26,714 bases of DNA from Candidatus Thorarchaeota archaeon (GCA_029858305.1 JAOUFI010000027.1:1-26714), one strand, 5' to 3'. Shown: positions 12,201 through 26,714, counted from the stretch's first letter. Numbers and translations: made by a program. Notes: a model not told the origin generated them from the sequence alone.

Positions 12201-13855
12201 GTATGGTCAATTACTATGTTCTTATTGTAACGAAAACTAGGAATCACATCACTAGGATCTGGTACAATGAAGTCTACGAATAGCTGTGCAAGATCTGCCT
12301 GTGGATAATTTGATGAACCTTTGATCTGGTTATAGGCATACTGTTGGTTTGAATATGCATAGCCAATCATTATGCAGATATAATTTCCACTTTGCCATCC
12401 CGGTCTTGAAACGACATCTTGTATGAGAGCTGAGATATCTGGTGTGACAGGCCTGCTACCTGCTCCCCATGATGTTGGATGCCAGTAGACGCTAGTATTC
12501 ACCCAGTCATATCTGTCTGGAAGTAATGGATATCCACTAGTAAAGGCGGCCACATTGTCTTCATCAGCAACATAGACACGCATATCGGGTAGGTTGGTGG
12601 TGGAAACTGCTTCAACTTCCAGAAATGCAGACTCTATCACAGCTCCCTGAGGGACATTCAAAGGAAACTGGAGCCCTACCTGATATGCATTTGCAGTTGT
12701 CCAATCAGGGTAAAGAGGAACATCCGCGCCGACCTCTAGGGCACCATTGTCGTTATATCCATTCAGATCTACTCCGCCAGGACCTGGTGTGCCTGCTGGG
12801 ACTCCATTGGAAGTGATTCCGCTGTAGCAGTCCCTATTGGCCCCAACGGGGACATAGGGGGAAACACTTCCCCTTGTTGAGCCAGTCACAAAAGCTCCAT
12901 TGGCTCGGAGGTCAATCTTTTCCGGAAACGGTCGCACAAGAAGCCTTAGCTCGACATCATCAATGTAGACTTCATGGACCGAGGAACCAGGTTGGCCGCT
13001 TATATCTGTTCCAAGACCAATATCGAATATCAATGAGTCCAGATTATCTACTGACTGGAAATAAGATGATGGGACTGTGGCTGAGGCTTGAAACCAAGTA
13101 TCCATGGGTGTACCACTAACAAACACATGATGTTTTGAAGTGTAGTTTTCAAGTCTTGTGAAAATATACACATCATCGTCTAGGATAGAAGTGCTAGATA
13201 CATAATAACGAAATGTGATCTCAGCTGAATAGACACTTCTCCATGGCTTTGATATTTGCTGGCTGAAATACATCATGTTGGTTGGCTCGAATGTTGTACC
13301 ACTATCAGGATTAGCATCAAACCTCCATCCTATTGAGCCATCGTATCCATTTCCAGAATATCTATTCATTTCAAAGGTTCCATGCTGAGGATGCTGTGTT
13401 CCATCAGAAGAATCGAACTTGACTATTGTCCATCCATCAGGAACATAGAATGGATCATAATTATACTGTGAATCAGAACCACTGAAGAACCAATGCTCTT
13501 CATGTTCAGCATTAAGTGTTGGATTAACAAGCCCCGAATCCACCCAGTATGACAGATGATCAAGCTCTCCCTCAAGATACTCAGAACTCCATCCCAGAGG
13601 TGAGTCGGTACCTATGTATCCTGCACGGGTCCGATCTACTACAGCGGTACCATAGGATGATTTAGAACCAAGAATTGTTCCAGAAAGCGGAGTTCCTGTT
13701 CCTGTGTTAGGGTTATTCCAGTCAGAGAGAGAGTAATTATTTGACGTTGATAGGCTTTCTTCGGCAGCAAAGTCCACATCATTACTAAGCGGTTCACCGA
13801 CTATGGTTACTAAGAATACGAGTATCACAAGCAACGCGACATATGCTCTTCTCAT
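1..13855 (-). CDS. Giant secreted/cell-surface protein (>=4,618 aa, 3'-truncated by the window edge): signal peptide, 5x DUF2341+LamG-like jelly-roll modules, long tandem Ig-like stalk
   Basis: The ATG at 13855 gives MRRAYVALLVILVFLVTIVGEPLS (basic n-region plus hydrophobic h-region). An in-frame upstream ATG at 13900 is possible. The same frame gives sensible protein where I translated it (about 13855, 12235, 11110, 10045, 9028, 7400, 6200, and 2-320: ...GGAGYFYFDFDTW). The ORF track lists no long minus-strand ORF ending here, which fits a frame with no stop inside the window. Confidence 0.93.
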   Translation of the reverse strand, partial: MRRAYVALLVILVFLVTIVGEPLSNDVDFAAEESLSTSNNYSLSDWNNPNTGTGTPLSGTILGSKSSYGTAVVDRTRAGYIGTDSPLGWSSEYLEGELDHLSYWVDSGLVNPTLNAEHEEHWFFSGSDSQYNYDPFYVPDGWTIVKFDSSDGTQHPQHGTFEMNRYSGNGYDGSIGWRFDANPDSGTTFEPTNMMYFSQQISKPWRSVYSAEITFRYYVSSTSILDDDVYIFTRLENYTSKHHVFVSGTPMDTWFQASATVPSSYFQSVDNLDSLIFDIGLGTDISGQPGSSVHEVYIDDVELRLLVRPFPEKIDLRANGAFVTGSTRGSVSPYVPVGANRDCYSGITSNGVPAGTPGPGGVDLNGYNDNGALEVGADVPLYPDWTTANAYQVGLQFPLNVPQGAVIESAFLEVEAVSTTNLPDMRVYVADEDNVAAFTSGYPLLPDRYDWVNTSVYWHPTSWGAGSRPVTPDISALIQDVVSRPGWQSGNYICIMIGYAYSNQQYAYNQIKGSSNYPQADLAQLFVDFIVPDPSDVIPSFRYNKNIVIDHTKVFSNLQDFPLLVDIWDDDLHWNAQSDGDDIAFVYKGEVLNHEIELFDKAGNGTHAHLVAWVQVPELSSTVDTTIVMVYGDDNLGNQQNAVGVWDTGYSAVWHLNDNPESTWSSTYADFLPHLPLSPGYNAPRPRIKDSVIPETIHTTTFGSTTHGYTSGSMTSTDLVGGMFGGAIDLDGINDYVDFGNPSALQMTGAFTVEAWFKADFIDNDYLVVKSGEANYRGWDLSFDDDPSISPAGWVMFRYSPDGINTNIAGYERVDTGQWYQVVGVFCPSSYARFYLNGELVEEVTTGIPASMNSPSRPVRIGRRSDDSGGTSYLDAIVDEVRISSVARSDAWIKTEYNNQRNPDLFLTVGEGIANFRYMKDITIDHTKVASDLTGFPVLIDIYDSDLKTNVQPDGDDIMFTSNGRSVPHEIELFDQQYNATHAHLIAWVRTDLSSSFDTIVTMYYANPTMGSQEDPLEVWRNQYQGVWHLGNDPSGALPAPQVTDSTYNSNDGTTFGSMTQSDRVIGHIGNALDFDGSNDYVDCGDTISLAVGYNDLAMSLWFATTDLDIPLAIKGAIGTDAYRYMLSVTSSGTVKAEIDDNSVTPGKITIYSASTLNNGLWHYAVMVRSGSWLHLYIDGSEVPTSPVDITGYGSINSVEPFLIAACDNYDNAGAPNLFARAQLDEVRVLSDPITSQWILTEYNNQFDPSSFYSLGIEQEVIIPKEIPFDFIYKKDISIDHTKVVSDLNGFPVLIELYDKDLRFDVQADGDDIVFVRDGWILPHEIELFEQMYNSSHAHLIAWVRLDLSSSADTVFSMYYGDSSSASYENPSGVWDTSYAAVWHLSEDPSGTIYDSTANNNHGLGLPIGSEPSLQSGKIYRCSEFNGEATNERIETPHSSSLSLQSDILVEVWIRTNNTDPTSDTIIAKWGDVGHRNYWLGKLDSSTLAFYVDNTQSVTASFSLVNDGSWHHVVGVANSISGNLLLYIDGIERGNALYSGSTQTGTSVLQIGNNPGSTGFIQEWDGQIDEVRVSGAYRSSGWISTEFNNQYNPSTFYLISMETLNQPTEFAHKKDIVVDHTKVDTDLIDFPMLVDIFDTDLRTDVQADGDDIIFKSGYYLCPHEIVSFDQAYNETHAHLIAWVKADLSASFDTIITLYYGNPNLMSQENPSAVWGDYVGVWHLDDSPTGIVYDSSQYNNDGTTLGSMTGSDLVPGQVGSGFELDGADDMVNVSESSSLDSIKYAGTLSIWINWVDASDSGYQRIMTTSDRFILNPSPPPTLIQDDGFEWAVQPDGDNYFYPWGGNSIDYNLATNPFTDNIWHHVVVTLDYNTKSVKMYLDGIPMILAIENVPTQWTQLASLGDWLWGGNQLDAAGQYFLGKFDEIRVSNAVRPSGWISTEYNNQYNPSSFYSIGVEEQISGEGYTFTTSSESSITVGAELSLGVQTPIQSYADDFTLGSSFSIVNGSLPIWTAGVLVSPPSEFDAVSFEITYPDGEWWPFSVTNPSGIEMTYAANWTCFDGKLVVGSTAVDEYGMWHIKFLDRNHVLDTQMGPVGGPYTTTNQFAIGDDIQFRVWSSGTIGSTISLELSDPSGSMWYTGHTTFQGERFTLPYYHRKYLTISHYNVAEDLVDFPVLVDIYDTDLRTDVRSDGRDIAFAIGDKTLSHEIEMFDQTYNLTHAHLIAWVNVPLLSGSSDTVIGMYYGNPLAPIVYDSGPVWDSGYLGVWHLSESGTGAPDEYLDSSQYKNHGQGGEGNSSYVPTQVSGKIGSGQDFNNLDGYYDLIDCGDSPLWQIDGYQITLEAWVQHDITPNTHVYGIMNHKGWYDGYALYINYGGGSTIKPTFALTSQDGYQLVGNNDVTGGTWHQIVATYDGSLMKIFVDGVQDPNVVVKTNAIDPSAYEKDFWIGHGDQPKDKGWSSEWVGQIDEVRISDVTRTPGWIQTQFQNQYDPSSFYSVSGEQSMGYSESAPINLDTSAPAGVWQVTARYSDASSDVLYRVGVFSRSFIVKRGVTLSLTAPGDAISDGISTKVIGEQLQVEFELEDTLNSELVSGATVNMNWSVGGIPTNVQLNDYGDGRYGKTLNTSDLGDYGRWRIDLDTEHPFYATTANFFYLDLSHRTFITYEPPMASPYGDDFTVKLTFRDQFDGILLPGATIACNGTLVGAPVDYGNGTYLITIDSAGLSTGNYAFSISATPSTSYLLGSQIDVHFTYRPVATDAYLIGLDTNETPWGQDASAIIHWFDTDHSGIGIDSGTITIDPFVQTSTIGTGGGYYNITIDVRSYAPGTYVFDLTISRINYQQTVATFTIIVGAHRTSIDVDYLPVNLVGSDTSINVSFIDVDLSSSSIGIGNLSHIIVDWGTGSQNVYSLSFILDTSGWSVGSHTINLTVIATSTPRYYMDTYILIELEIRKLDVFLSWDHLEPFPNGNDFVMYIHVNVSEPGMPIDGAPIDWLDQSYFSTTNQTGVPYSIKSFLNLGDGLYELTIDSAIFLEGEYRIIVYVDFLLSENYTDTHTPIITFTYRPILTYLSSPDYPTVATSYDTNITIMLSYVDIDHGLNISTGIITSEGAAIVWQYVTDGVYEVLVIVKSWDLGIHEVNLTADATGYQEKTLTFQIIVQIAYAYARSSVSTIDLPVGDTAIFYADYWDITHNEPILGATVAHDWIHALTITWTGSQYRIELPSLDTDVLSTYSIMFNFSKGSNYQFGYFNLTIILRTHSTEFRLANAVEPTSYNAMVNISVFCGDLDNDDGIVSLYVALSVYNETGLIPSIFENDTTLGNGYYIIRLAASNLGISGVYELIVHFNWTGSIQKYYNRTVRAFVNIIGEASELELLESSGPTPFLENMSYTYLYSEFYSGLGISNATPPAGNVFIFIQFPGELIDISQVSITEVVGYPGRYTLEFNSTIFGRPGIYTMVVFVNWSQGVDPFYDNCTDTVTIRITPRSSVVTVNPPESTPYGVNATFMFSFDDVADETPDRIAFGPQMNIIIGLPDYTLIYNSSTRQFQVSFNTSILGAPIGNRQFTISVSWTGTPFYANVTGRTVIITVRFRDTEFDCTSISPTPYGNNITIGLTFNDITLETSSPINDGLITLYNGTQIVPSSNYIISNFGNGMYELELNTTYFGRPGTYQLALQISTSHFYYANATTTRTLSLRYRLTMLIVEPVGEASYNSSLVIVFEYIDVLSSLRIGNESTPTTMEILNGSSWLFTSSWRSLSQDYLLTIETFNQNLDINKTYVLWLRISYPDASPFYRAAEAYVSFELSRRTTFLDLIEAPMPAPYLEYVNLTVFYGDTDSSNGIAGAVITLSLYGADLIEGNDYILQRTTQGLYYISISTTSIGPAGTSASLSLRASWSAGIPYYTDSIITLTLSVTKRGAITEILTSPAQVMFLENVSFTFRYIDSESEVLIPLSKSQLLIFSGGSPLLSSYFSMIFTGTGYEISINSTRLSSGLVSNWNITIIIDWQDNTVPYYTDERVSVWATVVNRMGLLLRDPVPTTPIGDNMSLTFTYVDIISGLDISNAIVVFDCLSPSGLIENTNFWVTRNGGHYTILVDTTFLGNTGTFTFSLRLLWNPSLAPYYANSTTALLQGSVRLIQVLLESSEPTPSTVPVNDNVSVILTYSDLDHSSPISGAESAFSVTYKTNTSGPGIWSITPYGLGSYLLVVDCSDAGAIGTNTLIIEITYSNYQSVEIQVPFQIRDRQGELNELPPADTYYGGTTYVDVQLIDVDAEDAPISDALLSLSWPGADLPIWSPLGNGWYRINLTTNGLSSGLHTLSIGAEKSNYFIADISVPIQILRIPTEIIMQDALPDVYWGEDISLWAIFNDTQNGGFISGALVVYQFGTLNGLMAEGTPAGNYSITLDTGNLATATSYIITITATFENYATSTKQVTVNVLRIPLGLTIIGSVHPELFKGDLLNISVYVNNTLYNIPLLGATVTAKNTLRTLDITLAPVPGQNGYYSSLIDTNNFIVGNYIIEIKASRFNYIAASTSLSVRINQIETALYLDALTSTYSSRTFNWSDTITLGIYVLVPSLNESYPYTTGLSDCTVVWSLSGTVYTGQFLNGTLIGGAGYFYFDFDTW
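6360..12235 (-). repeat. Five diverged ~330-375-aa DUF2341 + LamG/concanavalin-like protein repeats within the giant CDS (approx. 12235-11125, 11110-10070, 10045-9050, 9028-7990, 7402-6360)
   Basis: The copies begin FRYNKNIVIDHTKV, FRYMKDITIDHTKV, FIYKKDISIDHTKV, FAHKKDIVVDHTKV and YYHRKYLTISHYNV. Each continues FP(V/L/M)L(V/I)(D/E)...DG(D/R)DI.F, then ..WH(L), and ends DE(V/I)R(I/V)...WI.T...NQ. This is the typical DUF2341-LamG module. Confidence 0.85.
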
Positions 13856-13958
13856 TTGACTGACTTCCAATTCTAACCACTGAACTTCAACTACGAACAT
13901 TCTATACAACATAAGATAAGATAATTTAGTATATTCAAGTCTTGAAGTTGAATCAGTT

Positions 13959-14597
13959 TTATTCGCTTACAAACTCAATACGGTTAGCGTCAATCAAATC
14001 ATTTAGTGCTGGAGGATTTAAAATCTCAATTTTCTGCCTTTCTCTTGATGTCAATCGTGCGCCTTCTGGTAAGATGAGAGAAAAGAGTGAAGCACACATG
14101 AAAAGAGGTGTCAAGTCGAGGCGCTTGATTGGATTACCTAGAAGGTTTAGCTCCTCAAGTCTAGAACATCTGGAAATTGGTTTCAGGTCTAGAACCATAA
14201 GCCGGTTTTCCATCAGATTAAATGACGTGAGGCTCTTGCAGTTAGATAATGGATTAAGTTCAATCCTAAGTATCTGATTGAAACTCAGATCCAACACCTC
14301 AAGATTGGGGCAGTAACTTATCGGATTTAAATCTAGAATTCTCATGTTATTATGATCAAGCTTTAGTTTACGTATTGAGGGACAAAATGCTAACACACTT
14401 AAATCAATCAACATGAATTCGTTTCCACTCAAATCTAGTTCTTCTAGGCCCTCAACACTATCTAGCACACTAAGGTCAATAGCAACAATCGATTTGTTTG
14501 ACAAATCCACCACAGTCGAACCAGAATCTATCGGCAATTTTTCTGATCTTCCATTTGATAGAGTTGCTTGAAGTTCTATCAAGCTCAAAGGACTCAC
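13959..14597 (-). CDS. Leucine-rich repeat protein (24-aa LRRs, ~6 repeats), cytoplasmic
   Basis: There is a regular 24-aa period LxxLxLxxNxxxxxDLxPLxxCxx (LDLSGNEFMLIDLSVLAFCPSIRK / LKLDHNNMRILDLNPISYCPNLEV / LDLSFNQILRIELNPLSNCKSLTS). No signal peptide. The real start may be the TTG at 14588, 5 nt after a GGTGA SD-like motif. Confidence 0.9.
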   Translation of the reverse strand: MSPLSLIELQATLSNGRSEKLPIDSGSTVVDLSNKSIVAIDLSVLDSVEGLEELDLSGNEFMLIDLSVLAFCPSIRKLKLDHNNMRILDLNPISYCPNLEVLDLSFNQILRIELNPLSNCKSLTSFNLMENRLMVLDLKPISRCSRLEELNLLGNPIKRLDLTPLFMCASLFSLILPEGARLTSRERQKIEILNPPALNDLIDANRIEFVSE

Positions 14598-14874
14598 CTA
14601 CAATATGCTTTCTTTTAGTCAGTTAGTAGTACTGTATCTCTAAACACTTCAATATTTAGCACTTCTCTGAATACAGTGGGCAAATATTCTTTTGCGAATC
14701 ATTCTGCACCATTTTCTATACTATATTGTACTGCTATTTCACTTTGTATGCCCTCAACCAAGCAAAAAATCTCATTTTATTACCCCGAAATATGTATACG
14801 AATGTTTAATATGCAAATATATTCATTAATAATATGTTATATCTTTCGAGAAAAGAGGCGTGGTTGTCAAGAAA

Positions 14875-16125
14875 ATGCAAATCCCAGGAACAAACTTGGA
14901 GCTTACCTCCAAGGTTGACCGAGTGTATATTGCACATGAAGGCGTAATCAAGAAAGTAAAGTACACCGGTAGGTCTTTCAAAGACGTCATGGAGGAAGTT
15001 CAACGATTTGCCTATCTTAGAGGATTTAATGTTCCGATCACCATTCTCAAGTTCATTCTGAAGAGAATAGGTCTTCCGGAAGTCGATCGAATTCCCGGAG
15101 AAGACCAGTTAACGAAGGAAGACTTACTGGAGCTCTCAAGAGCACTTACGGCTCTTGACTCCCTGAAGGATGAGTTTCTATCACCCTTCCGTACAACTGT
15201 TGTACCTGATGAAATCAAGAAGGGCTTGATTGCTGAATCACTTGGCATGGAAGACCTCACACCAGAGATTCATGTCAAGGAGAAACAGAATATTTGGGAC
15301 CTACCCCTAAGCGAAGAGGTCACTGAGCTAATATACTCGTTCCACGCAGAGAATATTCCTGTGAGTACTCCAACACCAAGGACCCAATCAGAATCTGAGC
15401 CTGCATCAAGCTCAGTGAAGTTCATTTGGGATGACGCTGATGCGGTTGAGCAAATAGCGAATCTCAATCCAGATGAACAAGCTCCTGCTGAGCTAGACTC
15501 TGAACTCCTCGAACTGAAAGTTCTCTTCCTTGGAGAACGTGGAGTTGGGATAAGCAGTATTCTCTTTGAATGTAATCTGAAGTCAGCCAATGAAATAGCT
15601 GCTCAGAGTTCATCAGAAATCCAGACATCAGCTCATAACAATACAGTCAAATTCGATGACAAGAATGTAAGACTTGATGCATGGACCTTTCCACAGGGTC
15701 TAGAAACTAAAAAACCAAAAACAGAGTTCTATACAGGTTCTGGAATTGTTGTACTTGTCTATTCAGTAGCTGACAGATGGAGTTATGATAGTCTTGACTT
15801 CTGGGTACGTGAAGTCTCTAATACGTTCCTAATACCTCCGCCTATCATAGTCGTTGGAAATAAGACCGATTTGCGGGATCATCCTGTCTTCGATGATGAG
15901 GATGAACTAGATACCCCTGTTACCACCGAAGAAGCTCAGGAGTTCTGCGATCAGATTGGAAAGAGGATTGGAGGAAACGGTCAATCACATCCGGTCTTTT
16001 TCATGGAAACTTCAAGTGTTACTGGTCAAGGTATCTCAAATCTGCTTGAAAAGATCATTGAGTTCTGGTTGACAAACGAGAGACCCAGCATGCCCGCAGT
16101 CGAGGAGCATGTTCCTCTCCCATAG
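14875..16125 (+). CDS. Ras/Rab-superfamily small GTPase-like domain with ~210-aa N-terminal extension; probable pseudo-GTPase
   Basis: The C-terminal domain has LKVLFLGERGVGISS (G1-like, Lys->Ile), IVVLVYSVADRWSYDSLDFW (Rab/Ras beta4-alpha3), IIVVGNKTDL (G4) and FMETSSVTGQGI (G5). I prefer the ATG at 14875 over the GTG at 14860. Confidence 0.85.
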   Translation: MQIPGTNLELTSKVDRVYIAHEGVIKKVKYTGRSFKDVMEEVQRFAYLRGFNVPITILKFILKRIGLPEVDRIPGEDQLTKEDLLELSRALTALDSLKDEFLSPFRTTVVPDEIKKGLIAESLGMEDLTPEIHVKEKQNIWDLPLSEEVTELIYSFHAENIPVSTPTPRTQSESEPASSSVKFIWDDADAVEQIANLNPDEQAPAELDSELLELKVLFLGERGVGISSILFECNLKSANEIAAQSSSEIQTSAHNNTVKFDDKNVRLDAWTFPQGLETKKPKTEFYTGSGIVVLVYSVADRWSYDSLDFWVREVSNTFLIPPPIIVVGNKTDLRDHPVFDDEDELDTPVTTEEAQEFCDQIGKRIGGNGQSHPVFFMETSSVTGQGISNLLEKIIEFWLTNERPSMPAVEEHVPLP

Positions 16126-18009: not shown

Positions 18010-18822
18010 ATGAGTCTTGTCAGCTATACGCAGACATTCAGAATAGAGAAGGAACTATCATCAATGCAGGAGCGACTTGAAACAGAACTGTATGCCTCCA
18101 TTGCGACTCTTGACCAGTTGAAGAAACTATATGACCTTGGCTCAGTCGATATAGGGTCATTTCAGCGAGAATCACAAGCTCTCCTACAGGAGGTACGTAA
18201 CCATATTGATGATTTGAAACGCATTGGATTAGATATAGGTGGATTCTTTGCTGGAGAACGGATTTCGGAATGTTTCCCAGATGCATCTGAGCTTCTCAGA
18301 CTTCGTGATTATACTCCTGCAAGAACATACCAGGGTATGAATGCTGACCAATACTATGATTACATAGGACTCGCAATACTTGATGTTGCGACAGAGCACG
18401 CCTCAAAAGGTCTAATGGGCCTTGCAGAGCTTATTGTTGAAGTTGTGCGCCGTCTACCTGAAATCAAATCTGTGACTTACAACGACGTGATAGAAGCAGT
18501 AAATCGAGTAGCAGATAATGGACTTATACCAGGCATTCGTACGCTTCGTGGCGGAGTTAAAGTTGTGGAATTGAGACCGCTTGAACTTCGACGTGACCAA
18601 GCTGATGTCGTCAATCTTGCTGCGTCTAAAGGTCACGTATCAATTGAAGATGTAATGATGCAACTCAAATGGTCTGAAGATCATGCACGTCAAGTACTCA
18701 CAAGTCTTGTAGAAACCGGAATGGCTGTTGCAGACATTCGCTTCTCAACAGGAGGAAGATACTACTTTCCCGGTCTTAGGTCTCGAGATAGATCCGAACC
18801 GTCGAATCTGGGAATCTACTGA
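18010..18822 (+). CDS. vps22: ESCRT-I/II fusion: Vps28 N-terminal-like helical domain fused to Vps22/Vps36 (EAP30) tandem winged-helix domain
   Basis: The C-terminal part YYDYIGLAILDV...GLMGLAEL...VTYNDVIEAV...PLELRRDQADVVNLAASKGHVSIEDVMMQLKWSEDHARQVLTSLVETGMAVAD...YYFPGL aligns by eye with the EAP30/SNF8 WH domains. The N-terminal part ELYASIATLDQLKKLYDLGSVDIGSFQRESQALL...FPDASELLR resembles Vps28-N. An alternative start is the ATG at 18064. Confidence 0.85.
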   Translation: MSLVSYTQTFRIEKELSSMQERLETELYASIATLDQLKKLYDLGSVDIGSFQRESQALLQEVRNHIDDLKRIGLDIGGFFAGERISECFPDASELLRLRDYTPARTYQGMNADQYYDYIGLAILDVATEHASKGLMGLAELIVEVVRRLPEIKSVTYNDVIEAVNRVADNGLIPGIRTLRGGVKVVELRPLELRRDQADVVNLAASKGHVSIEDVMMQLKWSEDHARQVLTSLVETGMAVADIRFSTGGRYYFPGLRSRDRSEPSNLGIY

Positions 18823-19553
18823 GTATCTATCAAAATTGCGCCTTTCTTCTTGTCTATCCATTCAGCAAATCCTTTCTCAACCATCAATGCCATCACGATA
18901 TACAGATCATTTTCTGGAAGCTTAGCAAAACTCTCTCTTGATTCTTGTATCACAATGGATTTGACATCAAGTCTGAGTTTTCCTGTTCTTAATGACCAAT
19001 CATATATTTTGTCTGCCCAGTCTTCAAGAGGTTTCCAATAGATTCTAAGTTGACGCTTTCTCTTGTCACTCCATTCTGCAACTTCCTTATCGATCAAAAC
19101 CTGTGCAATCATCTTGAAGGAATCGACCTTGTTCCTGAGGTTTTTGAAGGGAGGTTCACTGATGAATACTGCAAGTGATAAAACATGAACCTCATTCTGT
19201 TCTGCCCACTGAAGTAAATAATCCGACCATTCCTCTGCCCAGAGTGTTTTGTCTTCCTCTCGTGGAGGAATACCATACATCCATTCACTTTCCTCCGGAC
19301 CACCCCAAGCTGGTGTTAATACTATAAATGTCTCAACTTGCTCTTCTGCTTCTGTTTCATTTGCGAGAACTTCTGCACCTTGAACTGCTTTAGATGTGGC
19401 TGGCTTAGTGTCCTCGACAACAACTTCCGGGGTATGGCTTTGTGGTTCAGCTACTAGTGTAGCTTCATCTTGTTGGCTTGCTGCCACAATTTCAGCACTC
19501 TCAGGTTCTTGTGAAGCCTTTTCTCTAGGTTTCTCTTTTCTTTTTTCCTTCAT
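18816..19553 (-). CDS. vps25: ESCRT-II subunit Vps25 with ~75-aa charged, disordered N-terminal extension
   Basis: EEWSDYLLQW...PPFKNL...AEWSDKRKRQLRIYWKPLEDWADKIYDW...F..LPENDL...EKGFAEW matches the Vps25 tandem WH pattern (EWLDK.K...I.WR.PEEW...IY.W). The ATG is at 19553 (TTG at 19559 in the track). It sits directly downstream of vps4. Confidence 0.9.
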   Translation of the reverse strand: MKEKRKEKPREKASQEPESAEIVAASQQDEATLVAEPQSHTPEVVVEDTKPATSKAVQGAEVLANETEAEEQVETFIVLTPAWGGPEESEWMYGIPPREEDKTLWAEEWSDYLLQWAEQNEVHVLSLAVFISEPPFKNLRNKVDSFKMIAQVLIDKEVAEWSDKRKRQLRIYWKPLEDWADKIYDWSLRTGKLRLDVKSIVIQESRESFAKLPENDLYIVMALMVEKGFAEWIDKKKGAILIDTQ

Positions 19554-19562
19554 CCCCAATAT

Positions 19563-20792
19563 TTAGGAACCCTCCGCCCAGTCAATATATCTCCTGACAT
19601 CCTCTGGGGGAGTTGCTGGTCTGATGTTCTCGATAGCACTCAAGAAGTCATCCCGAGAAACAGGTCGGATGTCTAAGATTTCTCTCTCATCGTCCATTCT
19701 TCCTGTGCGTTGAAGGTCCCGTATTGGCTCCATCGCTGCTTCTCGACAGACGATACTAATGTCTCTCCCACTGTACCCCTCAGTTAGATCTGCCATTTCT
19801 TCATAATCGACCGTTGGAGAGACCTCAATATCCTCCATATGAGTTTCAAAGATTACTTTTCTTGCCTCTCTTCCGGGAAGTGGCACATGTATCTTCTTCT
19901 CAAATCTCGATCGAAGCGCAAAGTCCAGTTCCCATGGCAGGTTCGTAGCACCAATAAGAGTAATTCGATCTTCTGGATTACTCCCAAGACCCTGAAGTTC
20001 TGTCAAGAGCTGTGTCTTGAGGCGTCGTTCTCCTCCTACATCATCTCCAGAGCGAGATACTCCAATTGAATCGAGCTCATCAACAAAAATGATAGCAGGT
20101 TGACTCTTTCTAGCTAGTTCAAAGAGACTCATGACAAGACGCTCTGACTCTCCCAACCACTTGCTGACTATGTTTGCTGCAGAGACATTAAAGAATGTAG
20201 CATTAACCTCTGATGCAACCGCCTTAGCTATCAGCGTCTTTCCACAGCCCGCTGGTCCATAGAACAGTATTCCTCTCCAGGGCTGTCGTGCCTTTCCTTT
20301 GAAAAGCTCAGGATGCTTCATGGGTGTAACTATTGCATCATTTATCGCTTGCTTGGCATCTTCAAGCCCAGCAACCTCAGAAAGCTTGATTTTTGGTCGC
20401 TCAGAGATGATTGTATCTGATATCATCTCGTGTAATCTCTTGGTATCTTCATCAACATCTTGCTCCACCTTGGAAGTCTGGCGAACTGATATAGGCTGCG
20501 GAGAACCAACGTCTGATTTTGGCGGCACAACGAGACCATCTACTGGTCCAGCTGTCCTCTTCTTAATGCCAGAAAGAAATCTCACCCTGTCCACGCATTC
20601 CTGAGCGCGGTCGAAGTAATGTTTTCTTATGCTAGGGAGTGAAGCCGAGTTTGAAAGTTTGATGAGTATTTTGCTCGCCTTGAGGTAGAGCTGACAAGCT
20701 TCATTCTTCATCCCTCTCTGATCAAGTTCTATCGCTCTGTCTAGAAGACTCTTGAGCCCTTGGTCCAGTCTATCACTATCCGATCCGGCCAT
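19563..20792 (-). CDS. vps4: Vps4/CdvC AAA+ ATPase with N-terminal MIT domain
   Basis: MIT-like helices (LLDRAIELDQRGMKNEACQLY...YFDRAQEC), PWRGILFYGPAGCGKT (Walker A), SKWLGESERLV (pore loop 1), IIFVDELD (Walker B) and IGATNLPWELDFALRSRFEKKIHVPLP (SRH/Arg finger). Confidence 0.96.
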   Translation of the reverse strand: MAGSDSDRLDQGLKSLLDRAIELDQRGMKNEACQLYLKASKILIKLSNSASLPSIRKHYFDRAQECVDRVRFLSGIKKRTAGPVDGLVVPPKSDVGSPQPISVRQTSKVEQDVDEDTKRLHEMISDTIISERPKIKLSEVAGLEDAKQAINDAIVTPMKHPELFKGKARQPWRGILFYGPAGCGKTLIAKAVASEVNATFFNVSAANIVSKWLGESERLVMSLFELARKSQPAIIFVDELDSIGVSRSGDDVGGERRLKTQLLTELQGLGSNPEDRITLIGATNLPWELDFALRSRFEKKIHVPLPGREARKVIFETHMEDIEVSPTVDYEEMADLTEGYSGRDISIVCREAAMEPIRDLQRTGRMDDEREILDIRPVSRDDFLSAIENIRPATPPEDVRRYIDWAEGS

Positions 20793-20945: not shown

Positions 20946-21563
20946 GTGAAATCTTTGGCTTCAATTAGAAAGGCATTTGCGTGGGGAAAGAAGAAACCTG
21001 ATGTTGGCGAGATTTCTAGTCGCCTGAGGATACTAAGCAAACAGCTTGCTCGACAGAGAAATAAACTTGAGAAAGAGGAACGTGACACAAGAGCTCGGGC
21101 TGTACGAGCACGGAAAGCTGGGCAAGCAGATGCATACCAAACATATGCGACTGAGATGATTCGTTTCAGACGCTACGCGCTCTCTGTTGACAAGTCCCGG
21201 CTTCAAATATTGAAGATACTTGCACATCTAAACCGAGCACAGACATCTGCTAAGACCTCACTAGCACTTCAAGAAGTAGCCAAAATTCTAGGTATGCTGG
21301 GCGATTCTACTGATGCTTCCAAGGTTGTAGCTAATGTTGATGAGATTGCTCGAAGACTTGAGGAATTCGAGATTGAAGCGAGTATATCTGATGAAGCGCT
21401 TGATTCCACGATGGAAATTTCTTCTGATGATCTTTCAGCTGCAATGCAGGAAATAGACATAGAAGCTGGTCTTGCAGATGCCTCCTCGGTTAAGAGACCC
21501 TTGGGCGAGATTGAGTCTTTGGAAGACGATATCAAGTCATTAGAGCGGGAACTGGGCATTTAG
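20946..21563 (+). CDS. ESCRT-III (Snf7 family) protein, Vps2/Vps24/Vps46 (CHMP1-3)-like class
   Basis: It has a basic N-terminal helical hairpin (LRILSKQLARQRNKLEKEERDTRARAVRARKAGQADAYQTYATEMIRFRR, like CHMP1 ...ARVYAENAIRKK), an acidic C-half, an N-terminal amphipathic ASIRKAFAWG and a C-terminal MIM1-like helix ESLEDDIKSLERELGI. It is divergent from vps4. The probable start is the TTG at 20955. Confidence 0.92.
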   Translation: MKSLASIRKAFAWGKKKPDVGEISSRLRILSKQLARQRNKLEKEERDTRARAVRARKAGQADAYQTYATEMIRFRRYALSVDKSRLQILKILAHLNRAQTSAKTSLALQEVAKILGMLGDSTDASKVVANVDEIARRLEEFEIEASISDEALDSTMEISSDDLSAAMQEIDIEAGLADASSVKRPLGEIESLEDDIKSLERELGI

Positions 21564-21564
21564 A

Positions 21565-23181
21565 TTACTGCCAAAGGTGCCCTCTAGATTCTGTTGAACG
21601 GCGCTGGATTTCTCTCCTATTCAGGTACGAATTTCTCATGAGATCTTTGTACCTACGAATGAAATCTTCAGTCACTAGACGACCATCCCTTAGTAGATGC
21701 ACAGTATCTCTTATGGCACCATAGATTGATTCTGCATCTCTCTGAAGAACATCAATTGATGCGTTTGGTCGATACTGAGTTTCATATCCGTAACTAGGTT
21801 CAGTACGTCCGACCGTCCTTTCTAAATCCCTTCTGAAGTACTCTGGGGATGAATAACCTGATCCGTATGGAATTCCCTTTGGTTGAACCTGGGGATTGGA
21901 CCACGGTTGATTATTGTATCCAAGATCCGGTTTCAGTGATGGTATTGTTTCATCTTGTCTCTTGTTTGGTGATAGAAGCGAGTAAACCATCCCCTCAATT
22001 TTCAATCTTACATCACTGATACTGACCTCATCCTGTTCGATTTTTCGCACTCTTTGCATATCCGTCTGAACGTATCTCTCAAACTTTCTAGCTATTTCTA
22101 CATAGTCGGGTAGGACCTTCTTTGTTTGGTCTGTACAGGATATTCTTACCTCGCCCTGTTTTAACTTCAGAACTAGCCTTTTCCTGAACCTCCCATCCTC
22201 TTCAATCGATTTCAAGTATAGAAGTGGAAAATCAAAGACTGCTTCAATCTTTTTTCTAACTCTTCCAGTTTCTGCTAAAAATAATAGTCTCTTATTTGTC
22301 AAGTATAATGTTCCCAATGCTTTGTCATTCTTTAGGAAATCACTTCCTGCTACCTTCACATCTGGAAGTGCACAGACAGGTAGCTCCCCGACAGAGAGCT
22401 GGTTGTGTTCATAGAAGTTCGTGAATTGATTCTTGTAGTAATCAAGCCCATCTAACTGTCTCTTGACCTCCTTTAGTGTGATTCTGAGGGGCTCAAGTGC
22501 CTCGTCAACATTTTGCTTATAATAGATACCGAGTTCGGTGATTCTATTAGTTATTCCTTCAATAAATGGAAACTGTGAGGGACTCCATAGAGCGTAGTCG
22601 ACGAAATTCTTTGTTTCAGCAGCCATTCTTCTTGCCACAATCTCTGCTTGACTGCCAATTCGGTTTTTGATTGCTGGCAGCTCCTCTTGGATCGCCTCAA
22701 TCTTTTCTTCCAGCCATTTATAATGGAGGAAATTCGCCATTCTCAATGAAACTAGTAATCGTTTTGTGATACTAAGTTTATTGCTAAACTCGCGAAGTTT
22801 TGTATGTCCATATTGAATTGTCATTATAGCATGTCGCATCTCAAGAGCTAGAGTTCTTCTCTTATCCTCTAAAACAACAACGCGCACTGAATGGCATCTT
22901 GTGCAAATATCAACAGTACGCCTACCTTTGGTTAGATTCTCGGATTTGCACTCAGGACAGCTCTCAAACTTCTCGCCAGGGATGGGTTCTCCCAAAGAGT
23001 GATGACAGTCACCACATACAACATACTCATTCGATCTGTTATCAAGGCAATCTGAGCAGAGTGCCGCTCCGCAGTCTTCACACATGTGAGTCGCCCTATT
23101 GTTCTGGCAGGATTGGCATCGTTCAGATGTAGGCTCTTCTGTCAACTGAGTACCTCCGGTCATCATGTCTTTACGAGGCAT
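21565..23181 (-). CDS. ESCRT-associated multidomain protein: Cys-rich Zn-finger cluster, coiled coil, PH/GRAM-like domain, Pro/Tyr/Gly-rich linker, C-terminal steadiness-box (Vps23/Vps37-like) hairpin
   Basis: Six CxxC pairs in aa 22-96; helical aa ~105-255; ALGTLYLTNKRLLFLAE...FDFPLLYLKSIEE...RLVLKLKQGEVRIS (PH/GRAM/GLUE-like, aa ~262-367); and AIRDTVHLLRDGRLVTEDFIRRYKDLMRNSYLNRREIQR (aa ~489-527), which resembles the TSG101/Vps23 SB. The CDS is certain; the domain calls are by eye. Confidence 0.75.
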   Translation of the reverse strand: MPRKDMMTGGTQLTEEPTSERCQSCQNNRATHMCEDCGAALCSDCLDNRSNEYVVCGDCHHSLGEPIPGEKFESCPECKSENLTKGRRTVDICTRCHSVRVVVLEDKRRTLALEMRHAIMTIQYGHTKLREFSNKLSITKRLLVSLRMANFLHYKWLEEKIEAIQEELPAIKNRIGSQAEIVARRMAAETKNFVDYALWSPSQFPFIEGITNRITELGIYYKQNVDEALEPLRITLKEVKRQLDGLDYYKNQFTNFYEHNQLSVGELPVCALPDVKVAGSDFLKNDKALGTLYLTNKRLLFLAETGRVRKKIEAVFDFPLLYLKSIEEDGRFRKRLVLKLKQGEVRISCTDQTKKVLPDYVEIARKFERYVQTDMQRVRKIEQDEVSISDVRLKIEGMVYSLLSPNKRQDETIPSLKPDLGYNNQPWSNPQVQPKGIPYGSGYSSPEYFRRDLERTVGRTEPSYGYETQYRPNASIDVLQRDAESIYGAIRDTVHLLRDGRLVTEDFIRRYKDLMRNSYLNRREIQRRSTESRGHLWQ

Positions 23182-23309: not shown

Positions 23310-24695
23310 ATGGAAGACCTTGCACAGATCGCCATTGAAGCAGCCTTGAAGACTGGTGCACGATTTGCGGACGTGAGAATTGAAAATTCCGCTACAACAA
23401 TCATCGAGCTCAATGATGGTGTTTCCAAACAATCTCTTTCATCTCGACTCAAGGGTGCTGGAATTCGAGCATTTATTGATGGTGCATGGGCATTTGCCCA
23501 TACAACAGACTTGACCAAGAGTGGGATGCGAGCAACTGGGGCGTCTGTAGCAAAAATGGCCATCGCTACCAGAAAGAGAGTTTCTGAGAAATTTGAGATT
23601 GAAGGCCCATCAGTTCAAGCGCGATCCTATTACAATGTCAAGAAACCTTTCAGTAAAACTACAATCGAAGAGAAGATGGCATTTGTTAAAGCAATAGATG
23701 ACCAGGCACGGGACTATGATGCTCGGGTATCTTCCACACGTACCATCTATGGAGATCTCTGGACTGAGCTCTATCTTGCTAATTCTCTTGGTACAAATGT
23801 TTACACTCAGAACTCAATTCCACGAATCATCTCTGCTCCAACAGCAAAAGAAGGAACAAACCGACAACGCGTACTCAAATCGCTAGGTGTTCGCGGCGGA
23901 TACGAAATCATGGATAGCGATGAGGCACAGAATATAGGGACAGCTGCTGCTGAACTTGTAATTGAATTACTCTCTTCAGTTTCTGTCAAAGGTGGAGTGT
24001 ATAATGTTGTAATGGATCCAATCCTTAATGGTGTGATGATCCATGAAGCTTTTGGTCATGCAGTCGAGGCTGATAATTGGCCAGCACACGCTACAGTTTT
24101 AGAAGATAAAGTTGGAACCCAAGTTGGTCCGGAGAATCTAAGCATCATCGATGATCCTACGCTTGACGGTATGCGGGGGTCCTATGAGTATGATTGGGAA
24201 GGGACAAAAGCGAAAAAGCGTCTTTTAGTCAAAGAGGGCATCCTAACAGATCTATTACATAGCCTAGAAACTGCGAGCAGACTTAATCTAGAGGCAAACG
24301 GCGCATCAAGGAGCCAATCTTTCATGTATGAGCCACTTCCAAGGATGAGTAATACTTTCATGGAACCTGGGGACTGGGAGGTTGATGAACTAATCCAAGA
24401 TACCAAGAGTGGAATCCTCCTTTGTAGCTTCAACTATGGCTACACTCAAACAGCGAAAGGGCAATTTATGTTTCAAGCAAGTCATGGATATCTGATAGAA
24501 AATGGAGAGAAGGGCCAGATGATAAGAGATGTTTCACTTGCTGGGAATATTCTCGAGGTACTTGCAAAGGTTGATGCGATTGGTAATGACTTCATGCTTG
24601 ATGCAGGAACCTGTGGAAAGAATGGTCAGGCTGTACCTACAATGACTGGCGGCCCCCACGCAAGAATTAGAGAAGTGCCTGTGGGAGGAATGTGA
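23310..24695 (+). CDS. tldD: TldD metalloprotease (catalytic subunit)
   Basis: Zn motif IHEAFGHAVEAD, YDWEG, PRMSNTF, and C-terminal GTCGKNGQAVP (Cys ligand). SD-like GGAG upstream. Confidence 0.95.
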   Translation: MEDLAQIAIEAALKTGARFADVRIENSATTIIELNDGVSKQSLSSRLKGAGIRAFIDGAWAFAHTTDLTKSGMRATGASVAKMAIATRKRVSEKFEIEGPSVQARSYYNVKKPFSKTTIEEKMAFVKAIDDQARDYDARVSSTRTIYGDLWTELYLANSLGTNVYTQNSIPRIISAPTAKEGTNRQRVLKSLGVRGGYEIMDSDEAQNIGTAAAELVIELLSSVSVKGGVYNVVMDPILNGVMIHEAFGHAVEADNWPAHATVLEDKVGTQVGPENLSIIDDPTLDGMRGSYEYDWEGTKAKKRLLVKEGILTDLLHSLETASRLNLEANGASRSQSFMYEPLPRMSNTFMEPGDWEVDELIQDTKSGILLCSFNYGYTQTAKGQFMFQASHGYLIENGEKGQMIRDVSLAGNILEVLAKVDAIGNDFMLDAGTCGKNGQAVPTMTGGPHARIREVPVGGM

Positions 24696-26045
24696 ATGGT
24701 TGATTCTCTTCTTGCTATTGGTGAGAAAGCAGTAAAATTAGCTGAGAAGTTGGGAGCTGACCAAGCTGAGGCCTATTTAGCTCAAAGTAGATCTTTCGAA
24801 ATAGAGGCTGAGAACAATGCTATCAAGGCCGCAAGCGAATCTAGAGATGTTGGCATTGGTATCCGTACAATAATTGACAAGAAGATTGGATTTGCATATG
24901 TTACAACTCTCCAAAGATCTGATGTTGAAGAGGCGGTTGAACATTCAATAAGTCTGGCTAGGGCTTCTATTCCAGATCCTGCGTTTCATTCACTCCCCGA
25001 CTCGCTCTCAAAGTATCATAATGCCATGGGACTCTTTGATAAACAAATCCACGATCTGACTGCAGAGGCGACTGCCGAACTAGTAATCCGAGTTATCGAT
25101 GCTACTAAAGAAGTATTAGATGGTCAAGACTATGCTATTGAAGCCGGAGTTCAGAGTTCGTCTAGTGTAAATGCTATAATAAATTCGCTTGGAATAGCCA
25201 AAACAGAGCCTAGAACATCTATCTCGCTTTACTCCTATCCTATACTGAAACATGATGATGATCAAACTGCGAGTTACGAGTATCAAATATCACGCAGATT
25301 GGATGAGATTGATCCAGAATGGGTTGGCAAGAGTGCAGGGGAACTTACTATAGGATTCCTCCATCCAAAGATAATTGAAGGTGGAGAAATGCCAGTAATA
25401 TTTGCGCCACTCGGTGCAAGTGCTATTCTTGGTCGCGGATTTGCAGATGCAGTAAATGCGGAGGAGGTCCAGATGGGTAGGTCCTACATAGCTGATGCAT
25501 TTGGAGAAAGGATTGCATCAGAAAATCTTGAGATTGTAGATGATGGTCTTCTTCCTAGCGGGATTGGATCGCGTTCTTTTGATGCAGAAGGTTATCCCTC
25601 TCACCAAACTTCGGTAATTGAAGGAGGTGTATTGAAAAGTCTCCTTCACAATTCCTATACCGCTAACAAGGATTGCGTTGATAACACAGGCAATGCAAGT
25701 AGGCCCTCCTATTCAGGATTACCAAGTATCTCGACAACGAACTTTATTGTTTCACCAAGGAATGGTGATATGAACACTTTCATCTCGGAACTTGATAAAG
25801 GCGTGGTGTGTAGGAACACAGGTGATCGACCCAATATGACAACAGGGGACCTTAGTGCGATGATAATCGAAGGTTATTATGTCGAGAATGGTGAAATTAA
25901 ACACCCTCTCAAGAACACATTGATAGGCATAAACATGCGGGATCTTTTGAAGAGAATCAGTCATATTGGAAATGATAGTCGAACTACCTATTCAATGGTT
26001 ACACCTTCTATCGTTATTGAACACGCAAATATCACATCTGGATAG
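24696..26045 (+). CDS. pmbA: PmbA/TldE non-catalytic partner of TldD
   Basis: GADQAEAY, GIGIR, SRSFDAEG, TGNASR and TTGDLS motifs, with no HExxH. It abuts the tldD stop (TGA ATG) and has GGAGG upstream. Confidence 0.93.
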   Translation: MVDSLLAIGEKAVKLAEKLGADQAEAYLAQSRSFEIEAENNAIKAASESRDVGIGIRTIIDKKIGFAYVTTLQRSDVEEAVEHSISLARASIPDPAFHSLPDSLSKYHNAMGLFDKQIHDLTAEATAELVIRVIDATKEVLDGQDYAIEAGVQSSSSVNAIINSLGIAKTEPRTSISLYSYPILKHDDDQTASYEYQISRRLDEIDPEWVGKSAGELTIGFLHPKIIEGGEMPVIFAPLGASAILGRGFADAVNAEEVQMGRSYIADAFGERIASENLEIVDDGLLPSGIGSRSFDAEGYPSHQTSVIEGGVLKSLLHNSYTANKDCVDNTGNASRPSYSGLPSISTTNFIVSPRNGDMNTFISELDKGVVCRNTGDRPNMTTGDLSAMIIEGYYVENGEIKHPLKNTLIGINMRDLLKRISHIGNDSRTTYSMVTPSIVIEHANITSG

Positions 26046-26046
26046 A

Positions 26047-26714
26047 CTACATTCGTTTGATTACCGGAATCCCTAGAAGACTCAGGCAGTTGGTCATGGT
26101 GATGATAAATGTCTTAACTAGTGCTATTCTAGCCTCCTTAACTCCAGGTTCTGCTCTCAGAACTGGGCATGAATCATAGAACTTGCTGAATACAGTAGCA
26201 AGTCCATATCCATAGCTAGTAAGTCTATTGGATGCAAAACTTGTTCCCCACACATCTTTCTTCATTGACTTTGCGACATCAATGATTTCTTCAGGGAATT
26301 TCGAAATTGTCTTCATTAGCTCGAACTCAATGTCAGAGTTTAGGATATGATAGTCTAGTTTCTCCTCTGGATAGTTATCGACCTTTTCGATGATTCTATG
26401 TGCTCTTGCGAGTGAATACTGAAGATATGGTGCTGCATCACCTTGGAAATCAAGTACCTCATTCCATCTAAATGTTATTTTCCTATCTGGTGAAGCATTG
26501 AGCATAAAATAGCGTATAGCACCTACTGCGACTTGGTTTGCAATCTCCCTCTTTGTAGCATCATCTTCATCTGGGTTGCGTTTGTGGACCTCAATCTCAG
26601 CCAGTTCAGTCGTCTTGTTTAAGACATCATCAGTAGAAAATCCAATCCACGTTCCAAGTCGTCCTGAGAAGTCTTCATCCTCCAAGCCCACAAATTCATA
26701 TGCTATATGATGCG
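26047..26714 (-). CDS. argS: Arginyl-tRNA synthetase, C-terminal part (5'-truncated by window edge)
   Basis: HHIAYEFVGL...FSGRLGTWIG (archaeal equivalent of the MSSRKG region), AVGAIRYFML, F.W..VLDFQGDAAPYLQYSLARAHRI, and the DALR domain FSKFYDSCPVL...ARIALV...LLGIPVIKRM. The frame stays open to the window end. Confidence 0.95.
   Translation of the reverse strand, partial: HHIAYEFVGLEDEDFSGRLGTWIGFSTDDVLNKTTELAEIEVHKRNPDEDDATKREIANQVAVGAIRYFMLNASPDRKITFRWNEVLDFQGDAAPYLQYSLARAHRIIEKVDNYPEEKLDYHILNSDIEFELMKTISKFPEEIIDVAKSMKKDVWGTSFASNRLTSYGYGLATVFSKFYDSCPVLRAEPGVKEARIALVKTFIITMTNCLSLLGIPVIKRM

Follow-up and report, generated by a model that had tools for sequence, protein, structure and literature searches.

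A Thorarchaeial Zn-finger, PH and steadiness-box protein at an ESCRT locus as a candidate membrane adaptor of ESCRT-II

[quoted passage not shown] Judged from its sequence, the target is a Thorarchaeial member of an Asgard-specific Zn-ribbon/coiled-coil/PH/steadiness-box family. Although a preliminary description of this open reading frame (ORF) had taken the family as new, the same architecture and the same inference stand in the text of Makarova et al. (2024; mBio 15:e00335-24, PMC10936438), where the family is named Znr_CC_PH_SB (also Znr_PH_CC_SB; asCOG cog.011556), is given as Asgard-specific and absent from eukaryotes, and is presented as a probable part of ESCRT-I, with a PH domain expected to associate with the membrane. 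The cog.011556 entry is also listed as 'Steadiness/Vps23 box' in the text of a 2023 preprint (10.1101/2023.07.25.550441). As far as these texts go, family, architecture and predicted role of the target are already published, and the finding is correct, but not new; its membership in cog.011556 rests on the match to the published description.

Table 1. Position of the target, its predicted domains, neighbouring genes and related proteins of other loci
Feature	Position	Strand	Details
Target ORF	21565..23181	minus	538 aa; ATG start, stop codon included, intact
Zn module 1 (putative)	23002..23124	minus	residues 20-60; pairs C22/25, C34/37, C42/45, C56/59
Zn ribbon (putative)	22888..22965	minus	residues 73-98; C75/78, C93/96; beta-hairpin 83-92
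Long helical region	22405..22872	minus	residues 104-259; helices 104-148, 156-189, 201-259
PH domain, GRAM/GLUE/bacterial-PH kind	22069..22398	minus	residues 262-371
Disordered P/S/Y/G-rich linker	21763..21972	minus	residues 404-473
C-terminal helical hairpin	21571..21762	minus	residues 474-537; helices 474-498, 504-537
ESCRT-III (Snf7 family) gene	20946..21563	plus	Pfam Snf7 E 1.4e-10; convergent with target
Vps4 (MIT, AAA, Vps4_C)	19563..20792	minus	Pfam AAA E 1.3e-38, MIT 2.1e-5, Vps4_C 2.5e-4
Vps25-like ESCRT-II subunit	18816..19559	minus	Pfam ESCRT-II E 3.9e-15
Vps22-like (EAP30) ESCRT-II subunit	18010..18822	plus	Pfam EAP30 E 8.2e-13
Vps22-like N-terminal conserved hairpin	18070-18201	plus	residues ~21-64; ELYASIATLDQLKKLYDLG...; near-invariant
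Ras-family GTPase	14860-16125	plus	421 aa; long N-terminal extension
Leucine-rich repeat (LRR) protein	13959-14597	minus	
Giant ORF	2-13912	minus	at least 4637 aa; runs off window start
TldD/PmbA metallopeptidase pair	23310-26045	plus	
Window end	26047-26712	minus	by eye, C-terminal part of arginyl-tRNA synthetase
Fused relative (other genome)	G299:C138:83400-85202 (locus L055; L058:10401-12203)		counterparts in G300, G298
410-aa protein (target's genome)	G000:C34:20835-22067 (L031:6836-8068)	plus	IFT52-type GIFT (Pfam E 1.1e-14), coiled coil, C-terminal hairpin
194-aa protein (target's genome)	G000:C56:8756-9340 (L032:6757-7341)	plus	coiled coil, proline-rich linker, C-terminal hairpin (E 4.1e-5)

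Domain architecture and conservation of the target

All motifs on which the preliminary description had drawn are present in the translation of the target, namely the cysteine pairs CQSC (22-25), CEDC (34-37), CSDC (42-45), CGDC (56-59), CPEC (75-78) and CTRC (93-96), which together span nt ~23118 down to 22894, the motifs GTLYLTNKRLLF (290-301), RVRKK (307-311) and RFRKR (331-335) of the PH region, and AIRDTVHLLRDGRLVTEDFIRRYKDLMRNSY within the C-terminal helical segment; the conversion of its nt ranges for the Zn, PH (residues ~262-367) and hairpin (~475-527) regions into residues is likewise correct. The proposed order of Zn fingers, long helices, PH domain, P/Y/G-rich linker and steadiness box, without a UEV domain, also held, and no UEV or UQ_con match is found in the target protein with Pfam at E ≤ 1.

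A word-indexed search yields 166 homologues of the target at E ≤ 0.001, which, where the source is named, are mostly from Thorarchaeota, share 52-90% identity and are nearly all called hypothetical, and an exhaustive scan of 1.84 billion cluster representatives yields 87 matches at E ≤ 0.001, 75 of them at E ≤ 1e-10, among which are proteins of 436-1171 aa that cover query residues ~20-405 at 20-31% identity. In the family alignment of 61 sequences (A1), which reaches down to 17% identity, C25, C34, C37, C56, C59, C75, C78, C93, C96 and R147 are invariant and C22, C42, C45, P94, H153, E158, F253, E266, G290, T295, F301 and G306 are at least 90% conserved, with all 12 cysteines of the six CxxC pairs in one or the other class. 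Searched at E ≤ 1e-5 against 400 genomes of the phylum, the A1 profile matches 382, including 87 of the 90 high-quality genomes and with homologues of the Loki type among the matches; most GTDB families give strong matches, and several others give weak ones (1e-6 to 1e-12) that probably represent single domains. By these comparisons, the conservation of the target is far beyond chance. As most homologues have 523-532 aa and align from query residue ~15-20, the true start of the target may be Met6 or Met7. For the whole target protein Pfam and NCBIfam return sub-threshold matches only; over the 61 family members, at E ≤ 0.01, the Pfam matches are to bPH_3 (26 members), zf-B_box (22), ANCHR-like B-box (12), Vps23_core (11), GRAM (7), Vps36_ESCRT-II (2) and EAP30 (1). 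The full-length AlphaFold2 model built on A1 has a mean predicted local distance difference test score (pLDDT) of 88.3 and a predicted template modelling score (pTM) of 0.71.

At the level of family profiles, the C-terminal hairpin belongs with the steadiness boxes of Vps23 and TSG101. A profile restricted to the hairpin (A3; the last 75 residues from 17 genomes), compared with all solved-structure sequences, ranks yeast Vps23 first (2p22_A E 7e-4, 2f66_A 8.5e-4, 2caz_A 0.004) and finds the human TSG101 headpiece at E 0.0062, with phycobilisome linker proteins intruding among the matches on a short motif (E 0.003-0.04). The matches become stronger with the whole-family profile, and among the solved chains found with it are yeast Vps23 (E 1.2e-5, 1.7e-5 and 7.2e-5), TSG101 (E 4.1e-4) and Vps37B (E 0.048), all at profile positions 460-521. 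The best Vps23_core match in the family has an E-value of 7.2e-6 and 26.3 bits against a cut-off of 26.8, and of the distant members, at E ≤ 0.001, 5 of 48 match Pfam Vps23_core, each at the C-terminal hairpin. Read by eye, the alignment has the hairpin aligned and C-terminal in 56 of its 61 rows, the other five being one unaligned row, one with EAP30 instead, one gapped and two truncated. With Vps23/TSG101 ranked top by the family profiles and the hairpin kept by the orthologues, the steadiness-box-type hairpin of the preliminary description is upheld. In the full-length model the hairpin reaches pLDDT ~94-97, and it follows a linker which contains 10 P, 7 S, 7 Y and 6 G in 70 residues, falls below pLDDT 50 at residues 420-444 and 459-471 and varies between 18 and 463 residues across the 61 aligned sequences.

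The middle domain is basic (22 K/R versus 15 D/E), and ten of its positions (287, 297, 298, 309-311, 331, 334, 335 and 365) are K or R in at least 60% of the 61 sequences. Residues 268-365 model as a seven-stranded domain with a C-terminal helix, followed by two short helices. Foldseek finds 48 matches in the PDB at E ≤ 0.001, mostly PH domains, including MTMR2 GRAM-PH and Lam6 as well as the GLUE domain of Vps36/EAP45 (2hth_B E 6.1e-4, 2cay_A 7.1e-4, 2dx5_A 9.1e-4), and VIA-align superposes residues ~255-371 on MTMR2 GRAM-PH with Z 12.5 (root-mean-square deviation (rmsd) 2.7 A over 107 residues), on EAP45 GLUE with Z 11.3 (rmsd 3.4 A over 106 residues) and 10.5, and on bacterial PH domains with Z 10.5-10.8. 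The modelled domain is therefore a PH fold of the GRAM/GLUE/bacterial-PH group, as had been proposed and as both searches bear out, with scores that do not separate the subtypes. DH-PH RhoGEF structures, which occupy the top Foldseek rows at E ~1e-5, were discarded; they align with an rmsd of ~20 A and a TM score of ~0.2, and upon re-alignment only the PH part superposes, the rmsd being otherwise 7-12 A.

Zn module 1 is B-box/RING-like in sequence: its Pfam matches to zf-B_box (E 0.002) and to ANCHR-like_BBOX (E 0.0039) do not reach the cut-off, and the family profile has the RNF4 RING (E 1.1e-4) and the KAP1 B-box (E 0.005) among its solved chains; the module is predicted to bind Zn, having ligands enough for two Zn ions. 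Pfam matches to DZR and to Zn ribbons are sub-threshold as well. The Zn ribbon, with putative ligands for a third Zn ion, matches Pfam DZR on the excised piece (E 1.1e-4), has its strands in both models and gives a local Foldseek match to the MCM N-terminal domain (E 0.18-0.34, 54-56 columns), the aligned part of which we read as the Zn-binding module of that domain. Short strands surround the cysteine pairs at residues 32-103 of the AlphaFold2 model. The adjoining helical region models as one elongated intramolecular three-helix bundle, whose helices exceed pLDDT 90 in both models. For residues 1-262 modelled separately (pLDDT 86.6), Foldseek finds no match at E ≤ 0.001, and a Foldseek-independent fold search gives generic helical-bundle matches only (Z ≤ 9.8); the likeness to the V domains of ALIX, HD-PTP and Bro1 and to BAR domains, at Z 8.2-9.8, is no greater than is common for helical bundles and was set aside.

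Two suggestions of the preliminary description are not supported by this comparison. A Vps27-like FYVE domain reaches Pfam E 0.22 on the excised Zn region and E 0.02-0.05 between the family profile and solved FYVE domains, in a search in which RING and B-box sequences score better, and for a TRIM-like scaffold the helices model as a single-chain three-helix bundle with generic helical matches only; the former has marginal sequence support, the latter no structural support. Of the idea that one chain unites roles of Vps27/Hrs, Vps36 and Vps23, the PH domain of the GRAM/GLUE kind and the Vps23-type steadiness box are borne out and the FYVE part is not supported; the suggested ESCRT-0 role and lipid specificity are conjectural.

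The ESCRT locus, the Vps22-like neighbour and a fused relative

The target and the Snf7 gene face each other tail to tail, their last bases being 2 nt apart, with the Vps4, Vps25-like and Vps22-like genes in the same window. The surroundings of homologues were sampled as ~17-18 kb regions from 16 genomes of 8 GTDB families, in which 144 ORFs of at least 90 aa within ~6 kb were compared with Pfam at E ≤ 1e-5; the loci come from related genomes and are not independent, and the counts are given without statistics. Twelve of the 16 loci, representing 5 of the 8 families sampled, have a Snf7 gene within ~4 kb of the homologue (4/4 Thorarchaeial loci, 4/5 of the largest family, 2/2 of a third and 1/1 in each of two more). 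The Snf7 gene is directly adjacent (3-144 nt) in six loci and convergent, as in the window, in the five of them outside family f6; a tail-to-tail Snf7 neighbour is found in all four Thorarchaeial loci checked and also in other families. Vps4 together with Vps25 is present in 4 of the 16 loci. The proposed linkage to ESCRT genes is thus borne out by the neighbours in the window and by the recurrence of Snf7.

Further genes of the window were noted in passing. The LRR protein and the Ras-family GTPase are encoded just upstream of the ESCRT cluster, and an LRR gene adjoins the Snf7 gene in the locus of a distant relative (L048). The giant ORF, in which five Laminin_G_3 (concanavalin-like) domains and repeats of DUF2341 precede a long, repetitive C-terminal part, probably encodes a surface protein. 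An aspartyl-tRNA synthetase-like gene, identified from the loci of relatives, lies upstream of the ESCRT locus; downstream, the TldD/PmbA pair stands beside the target homologue in all four Thorarchaeial loci checked and is followed in three of the four by an arginyl-tRNA synthetase gene.

The Vps22-like subunit is the predicted partner of the target. Most of its homologues, among 120 listed, have 252 aa, and its true start is therefore probably Met19 (nt 18064). Its profile finds human SNF8/Vps22 among the solved chains (E 5.6e-20) and, with its N-terminal positions 6-70, the N-terminal domain of yeast Vps28 in four ESCRT-I core entries (E 0.078-0.13). The N-terminal hairpin has A29, I31-D35 and G44 invariant in 32 sequences; hhalign aligns it with the target hairpin at a probability of 17% (E 0.0015), and in six relatives the corresponding ORF, which has ~250-270 aa or in one case 106 aa and is located 3-4 kb from the target homologue, matches the Pfam VPS28 N-terminal region (E 0.003-0.01). 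These data are consistent, weakly, with a Vps28-N-like steadiness box at the N-terminus of the Vps22-like subunit, and Asgard Vps22 (cog.002769) is described as fused to a steadiness box in the text of Makarova et al. (2024; PMC10936438).

In a complex prediction, residues 19-110 of the Vps22-like subunit and residues 465-538 of the target, each with its own alignment, score 0.84, 0.86 and 0.84, with 0.02 for the best of three controls; in the calibration of the tool the mark is reached by 58 of 80 solved complexes and by 2 of 110 mismatched pairs, counts that are only a rough guide for alignments supplied by the user, as here. Between the three runs at least 97% of the contacts coincide, with a partner pLDDT of at least 79, and the predicted interface lies between Vps22-like residues 21-58, which cover the invariant A29, I31-D35 and G44, and target residues 494-523; the predicted contacts include 28-33 and 36-37 of the former and 508-519 of the latter. 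The target hairpin is thus predicted, in these models, to dock on the N-terminal hairpin of the Vps22-like subunit, a docking not found in the text of the published family description, its figures and supplements aside.

A gene fusion bears on the same question. One member of the family alignment, the 601-aa protein P0153, has EAP30 (E 1.8e-11, residues 460-585) behind its Zn/helical/PH module where the target has the hairpin, and its PH domain matches Vps36_ESCRT-II (E 1.8e-4). At E ≤ 1e-40, P0153 is matched in 3 of 400 genomes, which are all three of one Asgard GTDB family; the match extends over the full length in two of them and over residues 1-481, up to the end of the locus sequence, in the third. 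In these three genomes no hairpin-ended full-length copy was found, and no hidden steadiness-box hairpin is detected between PH domain and EAP30 of the fused relative (hhalign probability 0.5%). The contig of the fused gene also carries a separate Vps22-like gene, a full VPS28 gene (E 8.2e-17) and a UEV/E2-like gene, with a Snf7 gene ~640 nt downstream, and the fused EAP30 part matches Vps22 (E 5.5e-6) better than Vps36 (E 0.0034). Fusion of the module to EAP30 is expected if the two modules work together, and can be taken as a hint that the module works with ESCRT-II.

The PH-EAP30 fusion is at the same time a Vps36-like layout inside Asgard archaea, in which, according to the text of Hatano et al. 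(2022; PMC9192718), no Vps36 homologue was identifiable. No description of the fusion was found in the literature texts searched; the figures and supplements of Makarova et al. (2024), which lie outside these texts, may show it. The fused protein may reflect the ancestry of Vps36 or an independent fusion. That the GLUE domain of Vps36 goes back to the Zn/helical/PH module of this archaeal family, with non-covalent docking in most Asgard lineages and covalent fusion to EAP30 in one, is a tentative proposal that we hold to be doubtful; if true, the fused lineage would possess a pair of Vps22 and a Vps36-like protein that predates eukaryotes.

Proposed role and alternatives

Components of a ubiquitin-dependent step were searched for in the genome of the target, which is 88.9% complete. 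No UEV or ubiquitin match is found there with Pfam at E ≤ 0.01, and UEV is found in none of four other Thorarchaeial genomes, with a match in the positive-control genome at E 2.9e-7; Thorarchaeota seem to be without true ubiquitin homologues according to the text of Hatano et al. (2022; PMC9192718). The lack of such matches fits a ubiquitin-independent role, as had been suggested from the sequence of the target. VPS28 and Vps23_core give nothing at E ≤ 0.001 in the same genome, which does not show their absence because the genome is incomplete and the models missed all 14 control genomes too.

We consider it probable, with room for doubt, that the target is an early-acting ESCRT adaptor, with its PH domain on the membrane and its hairpin on the Vps22-like subunit, and that no UEV or ubiquitin step is involved. 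The PH domain, as modelled, would hold the target on the membrane via its conserved basic residues, the Zn/helical module would bind some partner or cargo, and the steadiness-box hairpin would dock on the N-terminal hairpin of the neighbouring Vps22-like subunit. A membrane anchor would thus be coupled directly to ESCRT-II and from there to Vps25, ESCRT-III and Vps4, and the target would in effect do the job of the Vps23 headpiece and that of the Vps36 GLUE domain in one chain.

Several points weigh against this adaptor model. No ESCRT gene lies within ~6 kb of the homologue in 4 of the 16 sampled loci, two of which have Ras/Arf-type GTPase genes nearby (L050 and L053, on both sides in L053). 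The hairpin of the target alone finds no Vps23_core match with Pfam even at E ≤ 10, and its homology to the steadiness box therefore rests on family profiles. The likeness of the Vps22-like hairpin to a steadiness box is weak by each of the measures given above (hhalign 17%, Vps28-N E 0.078-0.13, Pfam VPS28 0.003-0.01), and in one relative (L039) the EAP30 profile itself extends over the N-terminal helices, so that these helices are possibly an ordinary Vps22 helical domain. The complex score is the model's own confidence and, as Vps23-Vps28 headpieces are among the solved structures, a pass may stem from resemblance to such a complex instead of from binding. The ligands of PH and GLUE domains can be proteins and not lipids, and lipid binding, Zn binding and the interactions of the target are predictions. 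Finally, a VPS28-like protein of ~415-450 aa could be the real partner of the hairpin; with a weak full-length VPS28 match it is present in 25 of 61 Thorarchaeial genomes at E ≤ 0.01 (one over the cut-off), and none was found in the 88.9%-complete genome of the target.

This last protein leads to a classical ESCRT-I-like arrangement, in which the hairpin would pair with free-standing steadiness-box proteins, either Vps28-like or small coiled-coil/hairpin proteins, and only the resulting headpiece would contact ESCRT-II, the Vps22-like N-terminus not being the direct partner. We judge it unlikely, though by no means negligible. The hairpin part of the family profile also matches two other proteins of the genome, the 410-aa GIFT protein (E 2.8e-6) and the 194-aa protein (E 4.1e-5), which by its sequence may be a free-standing steadiness-box protein, and two-hybrid data in the text of Hatano et al. 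(2022; PMC9192718) hint at a possible interaction between Vps28 and a free-standing steadiness-box protein in Loki- and Thorarchaeota; together with the 25 genomes with weak VPS28 matches these favour pairing of the ESCRT-I kind. On the other hand, no VPS28 match at E ≤ 0.001 is found in the 88.9%-complete genome of the target, ESCRT-II is suggested as direct partner by the one family in which the Zn/helical/PH module is fused to EAP30, and the target hairpin with the Vps22-like N-terminus, the only pair modelled, passed with wide margins. As a separate observation, the 194-aa gene has an Arf/Ras-like GTPase gene, a 370-aa ORF and a 780-aa ORF as neighbours, and the C-terminus of the last looks by eye like tandem winged helices.

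Three further explanations were considered. The target might be no ESCRT component but a membrane-associated protein of prokaryotic style, with a PH domain of the bacterial type and a generic C-terminal hairpin for oligomerisation, that merely sits beside ESCRT genes; this appears highly improbable, although bPH_3 is the commonest Pfam match (26 of 61 members) and short 'G-x-I-S-x-x-E-F/Y' hairpins are widespread, with phycobilisome linkers at E 0.003-0.04 and a possible resemblance of the motif to the SHOCT C-terminal domain. For the hairpin, no other solved sequence ranks above Vps23 and TSG101; a Snf7 neighbour is found in 5 GTDB families, one family carries the EAP30 fusion, the complex prediction passed, and SHOCT, at which no specific search was aimed, is not among the 25 listed of the 31 Pfam families matched by the 61 members. 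A TRIM-like protein, with B-box and coiled coil forming an E3-type scaffold or a self-assembling lattice, is extremely unlikely; the sub-threshold B-box match (Pfam E 0.002), which recurs at E ≤ 0.01 in 22 of 61 members, and the B-boxes of KAP1, TRIM2 and Midline-1 in the family-profile search (E 0.005-0.044) would suit it, but the coiled coil of TRIM proteins is a long antiparallel dimer, whereas the helices of the target fold back as a single-chain bundle in the models, no Pfam RING-family match is found in the whole protein at E ≤ 1, no TRIM structure is among the fold-search matches listed, and Thorarchaeia are without detectable ubiquitin. An ESCRT-0-like cargo receptor, finally, would read a lipid head group and a ubiquitin-like or other tag with Zn fingers and PH domain and use the hairpin merely to recruit downstream components. 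The layout of Zn fingers and PH domain, which recalls the FYVE domain of Vps27 and the GLUE/NZF domains of Vps36, the similar GLUE fold and the weak family-profile matches to solved FYVE domains speak for such a receptor, which we nevertheless regard as improbable: Pfam FYVE stays at E 0.22 and is outscored by RING and B-box, no VHS is among the Pfam hits listed at E ≤ 1 (UIM was not looked for), and ubiquitin and UEV were not detected in the target's genome, in keeping with the apparent lack of ubiquitin in Thorarchaeota (text of PMC9192718).

The adaptor model matters since it bears on how ESCRT is recruited to membranes in those archaea that are most closely related to eukaryotes, a question most pressing for Thor- and Lokiarchaeia, in which no UEV-Vps23 was found and, in Thorarchaeia, ubiquitin seems to be missing too. 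In these two groups, a membrane adaptor that works independently of ubiquitin is best sought in this family, an idea that is already published and to which the window contributes one further unannotated member. Added here are the predicted hairpin-hairpin plug into ESCRT-II, with named interface residues, and the EAP30 fusion with its link to the origin of the Vps36 architecture.

Comparison with known systems

There is no substantive difference between the target and Znr_CC_PH_SB, to which it was matched by the published description: the three Zn modules, the coiled coil, the PH domain, the steadiness box and the ESCRT neighbourhood are the same. The published fusion of Asgard Vps22 with a steadiness box (cog.002769; text of Makarova et al., 2024) corresponds to the N-terminal hairpin of the Vps22-like neighbour in the window, for which the Vps28-like evidence is weak.

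Among the eukaryotic components, Vps27/Hrs is marked by a VHS domain, a FYVE finger and UIM; in the target no VHS match is among the Pfam hits listed at E ≤ 1 (UIM was not looked for) and the Zn region reaches E 0.22 for FYVE. With Vps36/EAP45 the target has in common a PH domain of the GLUE/GRAM kind (Z 11.3 to EAP45 GLUE), which GRAM and bacterial PH domains fit at least as well, so that a GLUE subtype is not set apart, and, as in yeast Vps36, Zn fingers combined with the PH domain, which in the target precede it instead of being inserted; the tandem winged-helix EAP30 core of Vps36 is absent from the target, but present in the fused relatives of one Asgard family. With Vps23/TSG101 the target shares the C-terminal steadiness-box hairpin, which is homologous at the profile level and is predicted, in the models, to pair with a second, weakly Vps28-N-like hairpin. 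Vps23/TSG101, on the other hand, begins with a UEV domain that the target does not have, places a coiled-coil stalk before the steadiness box where the target has a 70-residue linker of low confidence, and offers, in Vps23, no counterpart to the N-terminal Zn/helical/PH module of the target.

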